Of a stretch of DNA of 64,000 bases, positions 4,079 to 38,200 are shown one piece after another (within the stretch, counting starts at the first letter, position 1; the number at the start of each line of letters is the position of its first letter). The stretch is from Mytilus trossulus (lineage: Eukaryota), in NCBI RefSeq assembly GCF_036588685.1, contig NC_086376.1:65782001-65846000 (forward strand). Reading direction: 5' to 3'. A program made the position numbers and the translations under genes. The notes beneath the pieces are model-generated. The model saw nothing but the letters and a program-made list of their open reading frames with translations, searched no databases and was not told the origin of the DNA.

Positions 4079-4249
4079 AATTATAAGTATTAAATGCTTC
4101 TTTTTGTAACTTCATGATAGGGTTGTAAAAGCTTTGACCTTGCGCACATTTTTAGAATAAAGCGCTTCACACAAAATGTATTTCGGTCAACGCTTTTACA
4201 CTCCAATGACTGACTTGAAGTTACAAAAAGAAGCTTTCAATTCTTAATT
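4079..4249. repeat. Fold-back element, ~170 bp, decayed
   Basis: Arms GCTTCTTTTTGTAACTTCA / TGAAGTTACAAAAAGAAGC and TGTAAAAGC / GCTTTTACA around an AAGCGCTT centre. Confidence 0.7.
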
Positions 4250-19329: not shown

Positions 19330-21354
19330 CTAAACCATTTCATAAATTTTGACAACATTTCTATTTGTGTATCCGACATCTGACAGAAAAAATCTGTCTC
19401 CACATATGTGAATAGCAGCCGGATGTTCTAGTCCGTCGGTTGCATCTAGCAGCACGCGCGCATCAGATCCGTCAGACGACATTTTCATTACGTTCGAGGA
19501 ATTTTGTCCACATACGTATATGTTGTCTTGACTGTCAATACTGACACCTCTTGCCCAACGTATACTATCATGCTCAATGGACAACCGGACGTTCAAATCA
19601 GAATAAAGAACCACAGCTCGTTTTTCGCCGATGCCAACGGTTTTCTGTGTGACGACAATTTCAGCTGTGCGTTGGTTGATAGCGAGATGAAAAGGTCGAT
19701 TTTCAAACATTGCTTTACCACTACTTCTCCTGTGGACCGTATCCAACACATGCCCATCTACTTCTATGACGCTCATTGATGGGACGGGTTTATCAAGAGG
19801 AAACAGCAAAACCAGATTGCCACGTATCTCGTCAACGCCGTAGCATACTTTTCCAACAAAAACCACGTTTTGTAATAGGAGACTCTCATCTGTCATGTTG
19901 AGCAGAGCAATTTCCCGATTGTTTGGAAGTGTACATGCAAGAGTATTCATATCAACTTGACAAATATCGAACGGTTCAGATGTCAAAAGGACTTTCGAAA
20001 TGAAAATACCGGTATCCTTGAACATTTTGATTGTTTTGTTGTGAAAATCGCACAAGATAACTTTTCCATCAGGCAGATATATTCCACCAGTAATAACGCA
20101 GTCGTTTGTATCTGAAGGCAGACGAATGTGGAAATCTCTTATCAGAACAGCACGTTTATCCAACATTGGTTTCATTTCGGCGATAGGCTTCGGAGCATCT
20201 GGTCTACCATGGGAAATTTTAATCTCTCCTAATTCCATCACAGTTGCTGGTATGTCTCTAGCTTTTGGGTTGAATCTAAATTTTATATCAATACTTTCTA
20301 ACTTTGCCGAGTTTTCCATCGCCTTTTGTTTAAAATCTAAATAGTTCTCACGCGCTTTGGCAACTGTTGCAACGAACTGAGCATTACTTCCATAACTCGC
20401 TGTAGCTTGAATCATCTTTCTAGAATGTTCAATGGCTGACTGTGTAACTTTGCTGTCTTGAATTCTTGACTGAATCTTATCCTTTTCCTCTTTGTGTATT
20501 TTAGTCAGGCGTTGATTAAAGTTTTCCTCCAATTTGTCAAGATGTCCAGTAATCGATCCTCTAAATGTTTTCATCTTCTTTTTTATGTCATCTTTTTTGT
20601 TGTTCAGGTTTTGATGTTGTTTGATGTTTTCATTTACAATTTCTTCGAGTGAAGATAGACACTCGTTAAATTGTTCTACTAGTTTCTCTACCTCCCGAGT
20701 ATTTTTTAACTCTTTCGCATAAAATTCAGTTGTAAGAACTTGGACGCATCTTCTATGTTCCAGCGCTACACAAACAGAGCAGACGAGAGTGTTATGATCT
20801 AAACAGAAGAGCTCCATATTTTGATTATGGCGACTGCAGCGAAGTTCATCGTCGGTAAGTATGGCTGGCTGGCGAAGAGCTTGGTCTACAGGCATAGTTT
20901 CGTGATCCAGAAACAATGCATTGTGGTAATTGATGCACGTCTTGCACAAACAAATACGACAATGCTTACACCAAACATCAGCACGGACACTTTCCTTGTT
21001 CTGCTTTTTGCAGGGTTCGCAGGTTTTCTCATTGTTTTCGAAAGACATAATCTCCATGACATTCATTATAAATCCATTTGTCGGTAGTTGTTCTGCCCAC
21101 ATGGATGGTGCTGCTGTTGAATCGATCGGAATTGCGATTGCTCGACATTGTGGGCAAGGGAACGAATTTGGTCTAGGATTATCGTTGTCCTGTGTATAAC
21201 GATCAATGTATGTTCCAAGACATTTCTGACAAAATGAATGAAGACATGGTAGACTCTTCGGATCTGTAAACCTGTCAGAACAAATCGGACACTTCACGAC
21301 GGCATCATCCAAGTTGGATTTTCCATTTGGTCGTCCTTTTTCTGATTTACTCAT
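19330..21354 (-). CDS. Intronless tripartite-motif (TRIM/RBCC) E3 ubiquitin ligase with C-terminal NHL-like beta-propeller (TRIM2/3/56/71-like, bivalve-expanded type), 674 aa
   Basis: Uninterrupted ORF. C3HC4 RING (CPIC...CLHSFCQKC...CPQC), B-box1 (CEPC...CKHCRICLCKTCINYH), B-box2 (CSRH...FCLDHNTLVCSVCVALEHRRC), long coiled coil, then NHL-like repeats (GVSIDSQDNIYVCGQNSSNV). Confidence 0.92.
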   Translation of the reverse strand: MSKSEKGRPNGKSNLDDAVVKCPICSDRFTDPKSLPCLHSFCQKCLGTYIDRYTQDNDNPRPNSFPCPQCRAIAIPIDSTAAPSMWAEQLPTNGFIMNVMEIMSFENNEKTCEPCKKQNKESVRADVWCKHCRICLCKTCINYHNALFLDHETMPVDQALRQPAILTDDELRCSRHNQNMELFCLDHNTLVCSVCVALEHRRCVQVLTTEFYAKELKNTREVEKLVEQFNECLSSLEEIVNENIKQHQNLNNKKDDIKKKMKTFRGSITGHLDKLEENFNQRLTKIHKEEKDKIQSRIQDSKVTQSAIEHSRKMIQATASYGSNAQFVATVAKARENYLDFKQKAMENSAKLESIDIKFRFNPKARDIPATVMELGEIKISHGRPDAPKPIAEMKPMLDKRAVLIRDFHIRLPSDTNDCVITGGIYLPDGKVILCDFHNKTIKMFKDTGIFISKVLLTSEPFDICQVDMNTLACTLPNNREIALLNMTDESLLLQNVVFVGKVCYGVDEIRGNLVLLFPLDKPVPSMSVIEVDGHVLDTVHRRSSGKAMFENRPFHLAINQRTAEIVVTQKTVGIGEKRAVVLYSDLNVRLSIEHDSIRWARGVSIDSQDNIYVCGQNSSNVMKMSSDGSDARVLLDATDGLEHPAAIHICGDRFFLSDVGYTNRNVVKIYEMV

Positions 21355-22704
21355 TGTTATTCTTCAGTCAAAATATCTTGTTTTCATTATTATTGCAACC
21401 TTACTTTTTAGAATATGTACGTCCTTTCTACATTGCTAAAATATCCGAAAGTTTGATTTTCAATTAGAAAACAATAATTAAATGTTACCAATATGTCCTT
21501 TCTAATGTTTTGTATCACTTATAATACCATGGAGCCCACGCTTAAAATAAAAGTGAAATTCAACACATTTTTACGGGACACCGGTGTTCCGAAGACAGCG
21601 TTTACAAATTTACAATAGAATTCAAAGTTAGAGCTTTCTCAACGAGAATTTAAATGTCATTTGTATAAAATCATTTTATAATTAAAACAATAGATATTTT
21701 TAAATAATACTTAAGTCCTCAAAACTGTCCGTTGGATGACTTTGTACGGTGTCTTCTCGTATGACGTGTTAAATAGTTTCTTCTTTCTCTCAATTTATTC
21801 CTTTTCTTTTTCCTTCTTTTCTTTTGTGATTAAACTTATCTCTTACTACGTGATGTATCAATTCAAAGTATGTTCCTTTGTCTTTTTGTCTTTTCTTTTT
21901 CCTCTTCTGTTCATCTGGCAAACTTTCATTCAGATACTTGTGTAGGTTTCGAATCTTTTCTCTATTGATGGAATGCATTTATTCTATCAGCTTTCTTCAT
22001 TTTAAGAGTAAAGAAAATAAGCGGCGAGTCAAAATATGATCCGTGTTTGCCTGCGAGCGCAGCGAATGGGCTATAAAGGTTTGTCTTGTGTAGGACAGAT
22101 AGTATGTTGCAATATCTTAATACTGAAAACTGATATGTTAAATCTGATTTGAGAGTTTTTTCGATCCATTTTTCTTTCTTTTTCGTAACAGGAAGCTCAT
22201 CGTGATAGCATCGGGTTCAATTTTTATCGACAGATCAAACATTACAAGTTCGTTGATAACTAAAGGTCAAATGAATTATGGTTCTCTCAAATCTTTTTCA
22301 AAATAAAAAGACCCTAGAGGACAGAGCAAATTTATATAAACGCACGATATCCGATATTACTATCAACGTTCTCAAGAACTGGTGTTCTTTTAAGACATTG
22401 TCTTCTGGGTTTTTTTGGATGATGAGATTAATAAATTTATAAAAAGAAAACAACGCAAGCTTTTGATTGGGATTGATGTTGTGTCTATGCCATTATTTGA
22501 TATTCGAGGGGGGCGGAGGCAGGATAATCGTTTGAAAAACAAATAAATTGGGTTTGTAAGAACTGAAAATGAAAAAAACTCGACACAAGACAAAATGTGA
22601 ATGAATATTTTCGGCATTACATTTATTCTTTCGTGAAGGAATATGTTTCAGAGAATTTAAACTTAAAACTTTATTGAGAGTCGGTACTGTTACATTATAA
22701 GCCC

Positions 22705-32256: not shown

Positions 32257-35200
32257 GTGTTGTCGATCTCTGAAGACATTTATAAGAGGATTATGTGTTG
32301 AGTGTACCATTATAGCACTGACAGTTGTTGACATATTTTTCATAACAGTAGAATTATTGATCAGAGCAGAAGTTTTGCAAGGTAAGGATTTAGATTTTAG
32401 AAAAACAAGAAACATCAATGGCTTAAGCAAACAGATTTAATCTTAATCTGATATAGAGATTATTGACTAATGTGTATGCAGGTGTCAATGATGCAGTTCA
32501 TTTCTACATTCCTCATGCATATTATATCATGTTTATTGTGGGAGTTGAATATATAACAAAGTGTATACAAGTATATAAATAATATCATGGTAGCTGCTTA
32601 AAGAGTCTCTTATCAGCCAAATTATCTATTAAATGTGATAGAAGTGCCATGTAAGCGAGAGGTTTAACAAGCCATAAAACCAGGTTCAACTCAGTTTTTT
32701 TCTTTAAATGTCCGGTTACAAATTGGAGATATGGCAGTGGTTATCTGATACTTCCATTTCTATTTATGTTGGCGTTTGTTTTTGTTTCGCTTCAGTGTTT
32801 CAGTTGTTCCGTTGTTTTCCTCTTCTAGATGGATTGTTTCCTTCAGGTTTAGTTTGTAACCCGCATTTGTTTTATCTGAATCGATTTATGAACAGGGGTT
32901 TTCTACTGTTGCCTTTAACGATATGCAAAAAATAAGCACTGTAAATAATAATACAGCCTTTTCCAGTAAAATCAGAAAAATCAAGAGGAACACGATGATT
33001 ATTTTGCTGCTTTTATGTCAGTTGTTTTATAGATATAATTGTTTAATGCATTATTATGGGTGAACTGTTGTGACTTTGCTCTTCAACTTGAATCAGTGGC
33101 GAGGTTGATACTTACTTTTACCTTTGGCCTTAAATTATAAGAACTGATTTCGTAGCATAGTATTGATGACAAATAAACTTTATATACCATGTACGCGAAT
33201 ATGTTAATCTGATGTGACAGTTATAATAAGTATGACCAAAGTTGAAATAACATAAACTAAACATTCGAGCGAAAAGAGTCATCACGAAAGGAATGGTGAC
33301 AACCTAGCATATATATTGTGAATACAAAGACTTGTAATCTCCTTTAAATGTATTTGGTTTGTACCATCCATTGTAGAAAACAATACCATGCATGTCAGGA
33401 ATATGGCAGTTTTTTTTCAAGATGTTTGTTTTTATGTATGTTAGCGTTTGTTTTTGTTGCACTTCAGTGTTTCTGTTGTTCCGTTGTTTTCCTCTTATAG
33501 ACTATAGTTGATGTGTTTTGTCTCAATCGATTTATGACTTTCGAACAAAGGTGAGGCCTTTATTTGTAGTATTTGTATACGATACTTCAATGAAGCACAA
33601 ATTAACTAGGCTGACGTGATGATGTTTATTAAACATTTAATTTATGTACAGTCCAATGTTGCTAGATTTTCCCATTTGCTCTTAATATCTTTTCTTAAAG
33701 TTCAAATTGATAAAATCATATCATAGTCCATCAAAGTACAAATTATTACAATTTTTAGAAAATCACATATCACCTATAAGATGACCGAATAGCACGTGGA
33801 GATAGATGATATCATACATATAAACAGAGCAGATAATTATATTTACCAGGATTAGATATAAATGTAATTCCTCTTACTTGTTTAACGTTACGGTCAGTGA
33901 CAAATAGTTCATAGATATTCAGAACGATCAATGTTTAAGAAGCTCTATTCAATATATTTTTGGTTTGCTTAATCAATAAGCAAGCTTTTAATCTGTATTC
34001 TATAAACTTGCTACATTTGAAATAAAAAAAATAAACATTAAACTAAATGGAAACAATGATTCCATATTGCATTAGTATTTCACATGTTTTGCTTCCTTTA
34101 ATATATCAAACATACTGATATTTAAAAAAAAATCTACAGCTGTCATGACTGTCTGCATTTAATTCATAGACATTCGATATCTTATAACTTTTGCCACATT
34201 TTTAATACTGTAACTCCAATATAGCGTGTATAATATCTCGGAAGATAATTGTTTGTTTTAATTTAATTTAATTGTTTCCAAAAAAATATTTTTTGTTTTT
34301 GTTTCAGATCCTTCTGAAAGCAAGCCAATAGATTATCTTAGTAGTCAAAGTTCTAACACAACAGCGCAGAATGATATTGATCCAGGAGGAGGTTGTCGTA
34401 CATGTAATTTTGATACGTCTCTTGGGGCTGCATACTGTGTCTCACATTACATAAGTTTAGTTATAGCTATGATCTTCTTTATAGAGGTAAGAATGGTTAC
34501 TACAAATACAATGCATGCACCATCTTCATTATTATATCAAGTCATTATCAGTTGGAACTGATTTAAATTCTAAATACCACAAGCCAACACAACTAAGGTT
34601 ATACGGGCTGTAGTGGTACCATCCACATTTTACTAGCTTATACAGATTGTTTGATTGATTCTTGGTTGCTTCAAGTTAACGTAAAGTGGCAAATATTTCA
34701 TGCATGTACAGGACGAAGCTTATGAAGAGCAGCGGTCAAGTGAATGATATACCTGTATATAGATATATATGAATATCATGTGTTAGGTCAATTTTGATTA
34801 ATTTTTATTTCTGGCTACTTAAGTTCGGTAAACACGGAAATGTGGTATGATTGTCAATGAGAAAGTTATCCACCATCGACCGTCAAAATGACGTAGATGT
34901 TTAAACTTATCGGTCGTCCCACTGTCTATATCACTCTGTTCAGCTCTTAATATTATTCCGTATCATGTCTTTGTGACGTCAAATACGTTGACCCGGTCTT
35001 AATAACTTTGACCCGGACTTATCAGCGACGTCATAATGTTTGAACCGACGTTAATAACTTTGACCCCAACTTATCAAGTCATCTTTTGAGTGCTGGTGAA
35101 ACAAAGAAAACACTTCCGAAACACACAAATATAGCCCGATAAATCGATTATCAGATTATCTGCATATTGATATTGTAAAATATCAGCTGCTTGACATAAT

Positions 35201-38200
35201 ATGAAGGCTTTTTGATCTCGTTCGCTACGCTCACTCGACAAAAAGCTTCATATTATGTCTCGCAGCTGATATTTTACGATATCAACATGCAGATAACCTG
35301 ATAATCGGTACATATTTTTCAAAACATTTTAAAACATTTTTGTTTTTTATATGACAATTTAGAGCATAAGAGATGTTTTCCCCCAATTCGATTACCTAAT
35401 GGCATTTTTTCTTCTTTTTTTCAGTTATTATTCCGATTTGTAACCGGCTGTTCAAAAATGTGTAAAGATGTAATACAGGTAATCTAAAGTATATTTATTA
35501 ACCTTATTTTGTTAATATAGCACGAAAATGTTCCTTTCGGTTCAATGCAGAGACCTCTCTATTTTAACAAACTTGATCATGACAATTGAAATAGTATCAA
35601 ATATCACACTCTTACTATACTATACAAGTGTGGACACAGATCAGTTTTGGTTGGAATTTTCAATTTACGTTTAAAATATGTTCGACATTATTATCATCAC
35701 CGCGAATTTTTCCTCACCGAATTTATGTATTGTTACTTTACCATATAAATGTCACTCTTATAAAAAAAATTATATCTATCGCAACTCGTGTGCTCGTCTT
35801 TATAAGGATAACAAAATCCGAGATCTACATTTAATTATACGAAAAAAACCACTAATGCACTGAACCCGTGATCTTTAAGAAATGTTATTTCCACAAGCTG
35901 CTAACTTCCTTTACTGTTTATGAAATTGCTGTATGAATATTTATATGGTTATTGATATACATATAGAGGGTATATAAGACGGCATGAGTTCATATCTTGC
36001 TAAGTATTTTCAAGTTTCATCGCACTTTCAGTAACAGCGAACAATCTTTGTAACGATATTATATTTTAAAACCTGCATTATGTGGTTGTGGTTGTGATTA
36101 TCTGATATATATACCGTTATTTCAGAGTTCCGTGCTTCTCCCGTGCGATTTCTTATATGTATTCTATAAGAGCCTTTTGTTAGTAAATTCGTCGAAATTT
36201 AATGAGAGAGGGATGCAATCTAAAGAAAGAAGAGCAATTCTAGCCCCACCACATATTCATATGCCTGACCATGCTGCAGGGTCAGAAGCATCGTTATGGA
36301 CGATCTGTCTTAATGACATGTACGTGAAACCTAAAGATCTTATCATCTTTTATTTCAGCTGATAGACAGTTTTACAGTATTTAACCTTGCTGCTATTGAG
36401 GTGCTGTTCACAATATTTTGGGAGAAAACTTTGTGCTTTCATATAGCTATAGAAGCCATTACTTTTATAGTAGCACTAAGGTTGTTGCGAATACCAAAAG
36501 CCTGCAATGGTAGGTATACCTTTTATTCTAATGCAATAAGTTTGTAACGGCAATTTTCATTGGACGTTGACAAATATTTTGAGGGGTTATATTCCACGTT
36601 CTACCAGTCCGTAACTAAGAAAGCCACCATTTTGAATTCCGATATTTTTTGGGTATGTAATTTCCTCGTAATTTCTCAAAAAATAAACAAGATAGTCACA
36701 TTCTGAGCCTTAAAATCTTCTTTTTGTCTATATTGAAACCATTCTGAAGCGTACGCAAGGTAGAAATACGTTTCGTATTCATGTTAGACAACCAGAGCAT
36801 ACATATGACGTCACATTGTTTAAATGCTAAAGACGATGCAACAGTTTCGCGGAGTTTTTCATTTATGGCATTTTCAAGCCAAATATTTATTAAATGAAGT
36901 GTATGTTAATATGTGGCATTAGAATGGAGATAACTGTATTGTATTTTAAGCTTGGCCTTCGTAAAACTTGATTTTACTGTCGCAAATATCCGTTTACCTA
37001 TCTCCGCTCCGCGTCGCTAGGTAAACTCAATTTGCGACAGTAAAATCGACGTTTTACGAAGGCCAAGCTTAAAATACAATACAGTTATCTCCTAATTTTT
37101 GACTATCAGACATTTTAGGAAAATTTGAAATACCACGTTGCGCTCAGATATAAATTAAGTAACCAATAAATGATATGATTGACTTTCAATAATAAATGAA
37201 GATGAAAATAAATGCAAATATGTCAAAATTTGATAAGCTAAACAATTTGTTTATCTAGAAATTAATGCGAACTTTCATGTTTGCGAATCCTTGATCATTG
37301 CTAATATACGAAATTACATAAAAAAAATGATGAAAGTAAAACGATCCCTAAATTTTGAATGCATGTTTTATTATTGTGGCTGAACCTGATGCTGACGTAT
37401 TTTATTAAAACATTGCAACACTCTTTGAATTTAAAGTATTATACCATGCTAATATTTCTAAATTTTCATTCTAGTATTAAAAGAAGATTATTCTGAAAAG
37501 ATGGATTTGGAAGTGCATTATTTAAGCAAGGCCAAATCTAAAGCAGAAGAACGTTCAAGAGAGCTTGCTAATACAGTACAGAAGCAACAGGTAACTATAC
37601 AACCTATAGCATACGTTGTCAGTAATATCTGTACGCCACAAATTCATACACCTTGGAAATAAGGGGCAGGGTATGACAAAATATTAGACTTGCATTGATC
37701 TGCTCTTTACTATGTATGAAAAAATAAAAACCATAAACCCACAAATGAAAGAATATTTTTTATTTACAAAAGTAAAATAAATGGATGAATTTATCTTAAG
37801 GTATTCTAATTTCTCAATATACAGAACAAGTGGCTTTCTTTAAAAAAAAGAAGAGCAATACGTGAACCTAAGACCATGACTTGTCACTGAAAGATTGTTG
37901 TTGAATTTTTGTTTGCGTTTGAGCTAAAATAATTTACTGTAAATCGAATGAGACAATGATAATGTTAAACTTCCTTTATTAAAGCTATGTCCTTGTGTGC
38001 ACATACTTGCACAAGTTAGTTGAAAGTAATGTTAAATAGATATTAATAGAAAAAAGTAAATTTATAGATACTATTATTTGAATACGGTATATGCATTTTA
38101 AAGCTCGATTATTGTTTAAATCTCTTTTGAATGTACCCCCCCCCCCCAATCTTCTTGCAAATCCCAGTGTCTGTAAACCGGATGTCGGATGCAAATTGCA

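Follow-up and report, generated by a model that had tools for sequence, protein, structure and literature searches.

A stretch of 64,000 nucleotides from Mytilus trossulus (contig NC_086376.1, positions 65,782,001 to 65,846,000; referred to as the window) carries two palindromes with closely similar centres. To what mobile DNA do they belong, and in which form does it move? A first-pass annotation, made from the letters of the window, had placed them correctly at 35145-35307 and 36926-37092 and had read their minus-strand apices, again correctly, as TC GA GT GA GC GTA GC GA AC GA GA and C GA CGC GGA GCG GA G respectively. It took them for complete fold-back elements, with no evident target site duplication (TSD) and perhaps mobilised through a folded single strand or cruciform by a tyrosine recombinase or an HUH enzyme. 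We found that the palindromes are instead the right ends of two longer elements, E1 (405 bp) and E2 (570 bp). Both very probably belong to the DUF3504 Crypton family as non-autonomous members, and they probably move as a single folded DNA strand.

Ends and insertion sites of E1 and E2

In alignments of copies, homology continues leftwards from the palindrome for 238 bp (E1) or about 400 bp (E2); rightwards it ends after 3-4 nt. This one-sided extension led us to reject a standalone fold-back element. The left terminus (box A) is in both cases the inverted repeat of 7-9 bases lying just inside the palindrome (box B). The arms are unrelated, as had been proposed, the best BLAST match between E1 and E2 being 13-18 nt long (E 0.57). 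In the genome searched (1.30 Gb, 14 large contigs), a first look gave 1201 candidates for E1 and 1981 for E2, and the 40 that were scored are 98-100% identical; both are young, high-copy families. None of 600 random positions gave a palindrome of comparable quality.

Insertion is precise. A contig of run X1 skips 34904-35309 and represents the E1-empty allele of a diverged haplotype; an E2-empty allele at the window locus was not seen among the contigs listed. Searches with joined flanks returned a spanning match for 12 of 53 E1 and 10 of 50 E2 sites, some of them self-matches. Clean empty sites, without duplication or deletion, are exemplified by L221, L223, L231, L236, L245 and L024 and by L039, L049, L202, L207 and L208. 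Flank duplication is absent from 30/53 E1 and 37/50 E2 sites, and does not exceed 2 nt at 49/53 and 47/50. Empty sites and flank comparison together rule out a TSD for both elements, in agreement with the annotation. Terminal direct repeats amount to 1-2 nt of microhomology plus matching target bases; the A at 36525, which abuts the left end of E2, is such a 1-nt microhomology. Head-to-tail junctions exist in the genome (for example at L014), and no E1 end-to-start joint or palindrome-less junction was found among the joints listed in assembled contigs.

Table 1. Positions in the window of E1, E2 and their parts, with the observations that define them.
Feature	Position	Strand	Evidence
E1, 405-bp non-autonomous Crypton-type element	34907..35311	+	53 full-length copies; X1 contig; paralogous empty sites
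E1 box A, left terminus TTATCGG	34907..34913	+	copy ends
E1 box B, CCGATAA, repeats box A in inverted orientation	35136..35142	+	sequence; pairs with box A in natural dimer L014
E1 inner spacer, 2 nt, after box B	35143-35144	+	
E1 terminal palindrome (arms C, D); minus is the putative folding strand	35145..35307	-	
E1 apex, two GA/GA pairs and GC-GTA-GC triloop	35216..35238	-	21-nt core identical in recombinase-coding L102/L104/L105
E1 tail GTAC, 4 nt; crossover after 35311	35308..35311	+	copy ends; head-to-tail junction in L014
E2, 570-bp non-autonomous Crypton-type element	36526..37095	+	50 full-length copies; empty sites; end homology with recombinase-coding L166
E2 box A, left terminus TTCTAATGC	36526..36534	+	copy ends
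E2 box B, GCATTAGAA, repeats box A in inverted orientation	36916..36924	+	sequence
E2 inner spacer, 1 nt, after box B	36925	+	
E2 terminal palindrome; minus is the putative folding strand	36926..37092	-	
E2 apex, GA/GA pair and CGC-GGA-GCG triloop	37002..37016	-	identical in L166, L176, L186
E2 tail TAA, 3 nt; crossover after 37095	37093..37095	+	copy ends, empty sites

Recombinase-coding relatives

The genome contains 341 candidate matches to DUF3504, 150 of which were scored; 60 recombinase loci, hand-picked for distinct frames, were taken at 10 kb each. Approximately 45 of these 60 were judged by eye to hold a palindrome of 90-210 bp with a GA/GA or GNA apex; among 40 stretches of 10 kb picked evenly, with slightly stricter thresholds, about 4 did so. 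The longer relatives with a tyrosine recombinase that the annotation had suggested looking for were found among them: DUF3504 elements with homologous ends and the same apex. The elements at L102, L104 and L105 (3.9 kb) have a frame of 619-652 amino acids with a DUF3504 match (E 1e-24; Pfam result for L102) and match E1 over 130/176 nt at the right end and 26/40 nt at the left. The element at L166 (about 5 kb, with nested insertions inside), whose recombinase was assigned by family search, matches E2 over 149/181 and 40/60 nt respectively.

The L102 protein has an intact R-K-HxxR-H-Y set; the K motif is altered in L166 and intact in L176. The predicted structure of L102 (predicted local distance difference test score 89.5) is closest to Cre (Z 21.3, root-mean-square deviation 2.9, 299 aligned), followed by QRICH1, XerA and the integron integrase (Z 16-17), and the partner recombinase is thus predicted to be Cre-like. 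Among recombinase homologues, the best matches are named from Mytilus (95%). Neither the 60 recombinase loci nor the 120 E1/E2 loci included a direct autonomous parent (>90%) of either element. Taken together, E1 and E2 have a partner with a DUF3504 tyrosine recombinase carrying R-H-R-Y, no terminal inverted repeat (TIR) and no TSD, traits of Cryptons, the subgroup being CryptonA or CryptonV. The tyrosine recombinase half of the earlier guess is supported by these matching ends; for the HUH half no link was found, Rep/helicase loci not having been searched.

Recombinase-coding elements also occur as inverted dimers that are 98-99% identical (L162:1829-8236 and L187:2626-7478) and as tandem arrays of near-identical units (L091-L092 and L186). 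Some (L095-L098, L110, L176, L186) have additional internal short apex hairpins or half-palindromes.

Targets, spacers and strand asymmetry

The E1 target is loxP-like, ATA-N8-TAT, and the crossover lies one base into the spacer, which is also the layout of loxP. In the target counts, nested and tandem copies were left out (4 rows for E1, 1 row for E2), right flanks come solely from copies picked by the left end, and E2 left flanks come partly from a set biased towards T. E1 sites have A-10 in 31/49, T-9 in 38/49, A-8 in 40/49, T+2 in 20/26, A+3 in 20/26 and T+4 in 21/26, and ATA ends at -8 in 23/49 versus 4 at -9 and 1 at -7. E2 sites have A at -8 (46/49), A at -1 and T at +2 (25/25). The base preferred at -1 of E1 targets (T 25/49, p 0.001) matches the base beside box B and not the junction base of the element itself. 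Position -2 of E2 targets (C 16/49, p 0.002; 9/25 in the unbiased set, p 0.009) likewise matches the base beside box B.

Within E1 itself, the duplex sites have box spacings of 9 nt over the head-to-tail junction and of 7 nt at the internal B-C site. The junction strand is 2 nt longer in ten groups (E1, E2, F091, F099, F102, F162, F164, F166/176, F174 and F182) and 1 nt longer in F178 and F187; spacings of F162, F164, F166/176, F175 and F187 were read by eye from the ends. At natural tandem junctions, box A is predicted to fold with box B, and two box pairs would fold into one site with asymmetric spacers, as in attC and CTX attP(+). The 6 nt that precede the right crossover belong to the element itself, exactly in 47/53 E1 and 47/50 E2 copies and with at most one mismatch in 53/53 and 50/50: the overlap is never target-derived. 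A two-strand exchange via a heteroduplex circle would, as established for Tn916-type elements, be expected to bring flank bases into some copies. A Crypton array at L164:669-8168 consists of two palindrome-less units followed by two palindrome copies, and this single case places a further crossover point on that strand as well.

The two strands of the palindromes are not equivalent. We oriented 24 families, one copy each, 18 via mapped ends and 6 via the open reading frame (ORF) side only. The palindrome-first strand carries GA/GA next to the loop in 17/18 end-mapped families (13/14 when relatives are merged), independently of ORF direction. Fourteen of these 18 have a GNA or GNNA loop and the other four have TT, TAT, AAC or TTT, so that the GNA triloop seen by the annotation is frequent rather than general. 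Over the 24 families and outside the central 28 nt, the same strand has 28 G·T versus 12 A·C (p 0.017) and 28 G·A versus 7 T·C mismatches (p 0.0005). It shows a G>C skew in 23/24 families and the lower predicted energy in 21/24. These mismatch and skew data amount to the strand-specific structural bias of attC- and CTX-type sites, and a similar purine skew is described for bottom strands of mobile-integron attC (PMC5371416). Among six E2-type palindromes, 26/73 pairs are altered on both sides with the apex mismatches kept; among five E1-type ones, 15/66 are so altered. Nearest-neighbour folding hardly separates the strands of E1 and E2 (0.7 and 2.0 kcal/mol respectively), because the stability of sheared GA pairs is absent from the model. 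Arm mismatches and site geometry thus lend independent support to the earlier idea of one-strand folding, from which we infer the mechanism discussed below.

The apex is less specific. Its genome-wide enrichment, which the annotation had proposed to check, is clear: the motif GAGCGNAGCGA occurs 2283 times, versus 317 for the reversed and 333 for the permuted control. Of the first 30 genomic matches of the 11-nt motif, only about 5 centre a long palindrome and 5 belong to a separate 1.4-kb family. Four more (L255, L256, L257 and L272; about 870-1740) lie inside elements of about 850 bp with TIRs of 31-64 bp and TTAA flanks, presumably Kolobok-like, where they form an internal CC-GA-GC-GNA-GC-GA-GG mini-hairpin. 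At L252, L261, L268 and L270, apex matches sit just inside TIR-like ends. At least 121 metagenome stretches contain an exact match to the 23-nt apex of E1; the 30 listed (L281-L360 set) are mostly GC-rich intergenic repeats of the repetitive extragenic palindrome (REP) type adjoining a second short hairpin, and none of 80 metagenome stretches with this apex has long arms. The short apex is thus present in TIR-type MITEs (miniature inverted-repeat transposable elements) and REP-like repeats and is therefore not diagnostic alone, which leaves unsupported the idea that it marks single-strand mobilisation by itself. We also rejected it as a Crypton diagnostic, its matches lying mostly outside long palindromes, and as a general trait of long palindromes: 1/13 passed the strict test in 400 kb of evenly picked sequence (control 51/4000 positions), and about 4/13 by eye. 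Because the apex is a widely reused module, our case is built on geometry and strand bias.

Elsewhere in the window, a third palindrome at 1047-1184 is 87% identical to one at L097 (143-299) with a GA-flanked centre and probably belongs, in decayed form, to the same class. The palindrome at 4084-4246 belongs to a dispersed family (L131, L163, L169, L185, L188), better copies of which have a GCGC-GGAA-GCGC apex. The end of a different, very high-copy repeat lies immediately left of E1 (about 34640-34716), and an intronless 677-aa frame on the minus strand (19330-21363) resembles a RING/B-box (TRIM-type) gene.

A proposed folded strand and competing routes

We propose that the palindrome-first strand folds at a replication fork or through cruciform extrusion, the GA/GA and GNA apex acting as nucleus. 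GCGAAGC-type mini-hairpins melt near 76 C (PMC13037366), which makes nucleation by the apex plausible; a priming role is the alternative. A recombinase given in trans would then exchange just this strand and release a single-stranded circle. In the circle, A would pair with B and C with D, creating a two-box site with about 2 extra unpaired spacer bases on one side (9/7). This site would resemble attC or CTX attP(+), stand in for an 8/8 duplex, and swap one strand with a duplex target that has an 8-bp spacer and is cut one base into it. Replication would resolve the resulting junction, as in the one-strand exchanges between attC and attI (PMC2727003) and between CTX attP(+) and dif (PMC3442271). 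More generally, we lean towards the view that animal DUF3504 Cryptons use a folded single-stranded attachment site with a Cre-like enzyme, as a eukaryotic counterpart of attC and CTX attP(+). The site would be structure-defined, common to many sequence-unrelated families and capped by the GA/GA and GNA apex, a motif that bacterial intergenic repeats contain as well.

Several observations weigh against this proposal. The empty allele in X1 falls one A short of the prediction, and one E1 site (L227) differs by 10 nt from its paralogues. About 15 of the 60 recombinase loci have no such palindrome within 10 kb, and the partners, at 74-82% over the palindrome end, count as relatives rather than direct parents. 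Spacing values come from 12 family groups and were not obtained for 5 further families; the box-B rule for target -1 is broken in F182 (A 3/3) and F170 (A 2/2); and L014 can also be read as an insertion in a 9-nt register. The mismatch counts rest on one copy per family, and the families are related, not independent; F151, oriented by ORF side only, has GA on the opposite strand, and F162 lacks GA/GA. Compensatory arm changes can come from template switching, with no need for selection. The apex motif occurs inside TIR elements and bacterial repeats, and at attC an apex of the variable terminal structure type is reported to play no part in strand choice (PMC2727003). The intermediate, the circle and the biochemical steps are, moreover, ones that we infer.

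The same data can be read as classical duplex recombination, in which a double-stranded circle junction with an N9 spacer meets an N8 target, following the Goodwin model with an overlap-length tolerance like that of Tn916/Tn1549; the palindrome would then be an accessory protein-binding array and the apex a host-factor site or a relic. The junction is itself an arm-spacer-arm site, short terminal microhomologies are present, the protein is Cre-like by prediction, L014 is compatible with insertion in a 9-nt register, and Starships go through circular intermediates (10.64898/2026.09.21.753150). Strand-polarised mismatches, conserved A-B box pairing, an invariant element-derived overlap and target bases that track the neighbour of box B are all left unexplained, and we consider this reading unlikely, if far from negligible. 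Overlap and strand polarity would be accounted for by a strand-biased copy-out from duplex ends, like that of bacterial SE elements, with the hairpin on a released single-stranded circle serving chiefly to signal second-strand priming or protection and not as a recombination site. SE elements circularise one strand (PMC9345347), and GNA mini-hairpins are present at ssiA and G4 priming sites (PMC13037366). This route, which needs neither box B, nor the 9/7 spacing, nor arms of 70-80 bp extending to the crossover site, appears distinctly improbable.

Rolling-circle (HUH) elements of the Helentron/HINE type have a superficially similar architecture, with subterminal inverted repeats, a terminal palindrome and no TSD (PMC4067079). 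Their other traits, insertion into TT, T-run ends and a terminal palindrome of 5-10 bp, are not those of E1 and E2: a T^T target is found at just 4/53 E1 and 1/50 E2 sites, the palindromes measure 163-167 bp versus 5-10 bp, and both ends match those of elements with a DUF3504 recombinase as the long frame (Rep/helicase loci were outside the search). This origin is largely refuted and very improbable. As for ordinary DDE MITEs with the palindrome arms as long TIRs, the short apex motif does occur inside TTAA-flanked TIR elements, but E1 and E2 extend 238-400 bp beyond the palindrome on one side only and their empty sites have no duplication. With neither TIRs at both ends nor a TSD, this reading is refuted and its probability close to nil, in line with the first-pass annotation, which had already considered the elements non-autonomous and distinct from DDE MITEs.

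Folding of one strand thus remains the reading that we prefer, and it bears on an old problem. Crypton movement has been a hypothesis since 2003, the circle model of Goodwin being restated in the Glomhopper paper (2026, PMC13465315). Terminal repeats are reported as not found in fungal DUF3504 elements by that paper and in animal Cryptons by Kojima & Jurka 2011 (PMC3212892). Animal Cryptons having been reported without terminal repeats, there was no substrate to test; terminal direct repeats of 4-6 bp are reported for fungal and oomycete groups and unreported for animal ones. Eulor5/6 are classed as Cryptons, hairpins being unmentioned in the available portion of the source (Kojima 2018). In our literature search, which left Repbase and Dfam aside, no terminal palindrome or folded-strand mechanism was described for Cryptons. 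Some Eulor families are probably called hairpin-like in database entries, which may then already hold this structure. Exact ends, a target consensus, the crossover position, young copies and intact recombinases are now provided. If true, the folded-strand model would bring to eukaryotes a route of single-strand tyrosine recombination hitherto described for bacterial integrons and cholera phage CTX. It would also offer a one-way integrase defined by structure, whose target is short and degenerate, and would give a rule based on structure to recognise unclassified palindromic repeats in invertebrate genomes. ZMYM2-4, QRICH1 and KCTD1 derive from this enzyme family.

E1 and E2 share with CryptonA/DUF3504 transposons and their derivatives a DUF3504 recombinase in a long frame, the absence of TIR and TSD, short microhomology and abundant non-autonomous copies (PMC3212892; PMC13465315), and differ from them in having a defined target, an inverted repeat that is asymmetric and a terminal palindrome of great length. 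Vibrio SE elements also use a tyrosine recombinase and form a junction from one strand, but they have several proteins, and an attC-like fold-back was undetected in SEs (PMC9345347). With Cre/loxP the likeness lies in the predicted fold, the ATA-N8-TAT target and the crossover position, whereas element and target have no overlap homology here and the donor duplex spacings are 9 and 7. The comparison with integrons is closer: attC sites and cassettes have an imperfect palindrome at one end of the unit, a one-strand purine skew, two inverted box pairs with unequal spacers, a unit that begins with TT and one-strand exchange, which is putative in our case (PMC2727003, PMC5371416). The palindromes of E1 and E2 are larger (160-170 bp) with a conserved rather than variable apex, the Crypton recombinase is encoded within the autonomous element and resembles Cre (Z 21.3) more than IntI (Z 16.1), and dispersed, degenerate targets replace an attI platform. 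An integron proper, with IntI, attI and a cassette array, was rejected in view of the dispersed copies and the DUF3504 partner. Unlike CTX attP(+), which depends on host XerCD and on dif, the E1/E2 type would use its own recombinase on thousands of degenerate targets by a mechanism that is here conjectural; it has in common with attP(+) two inverted pairs of binding sites that fold into one stem, and tandem copies (PMC3442271).

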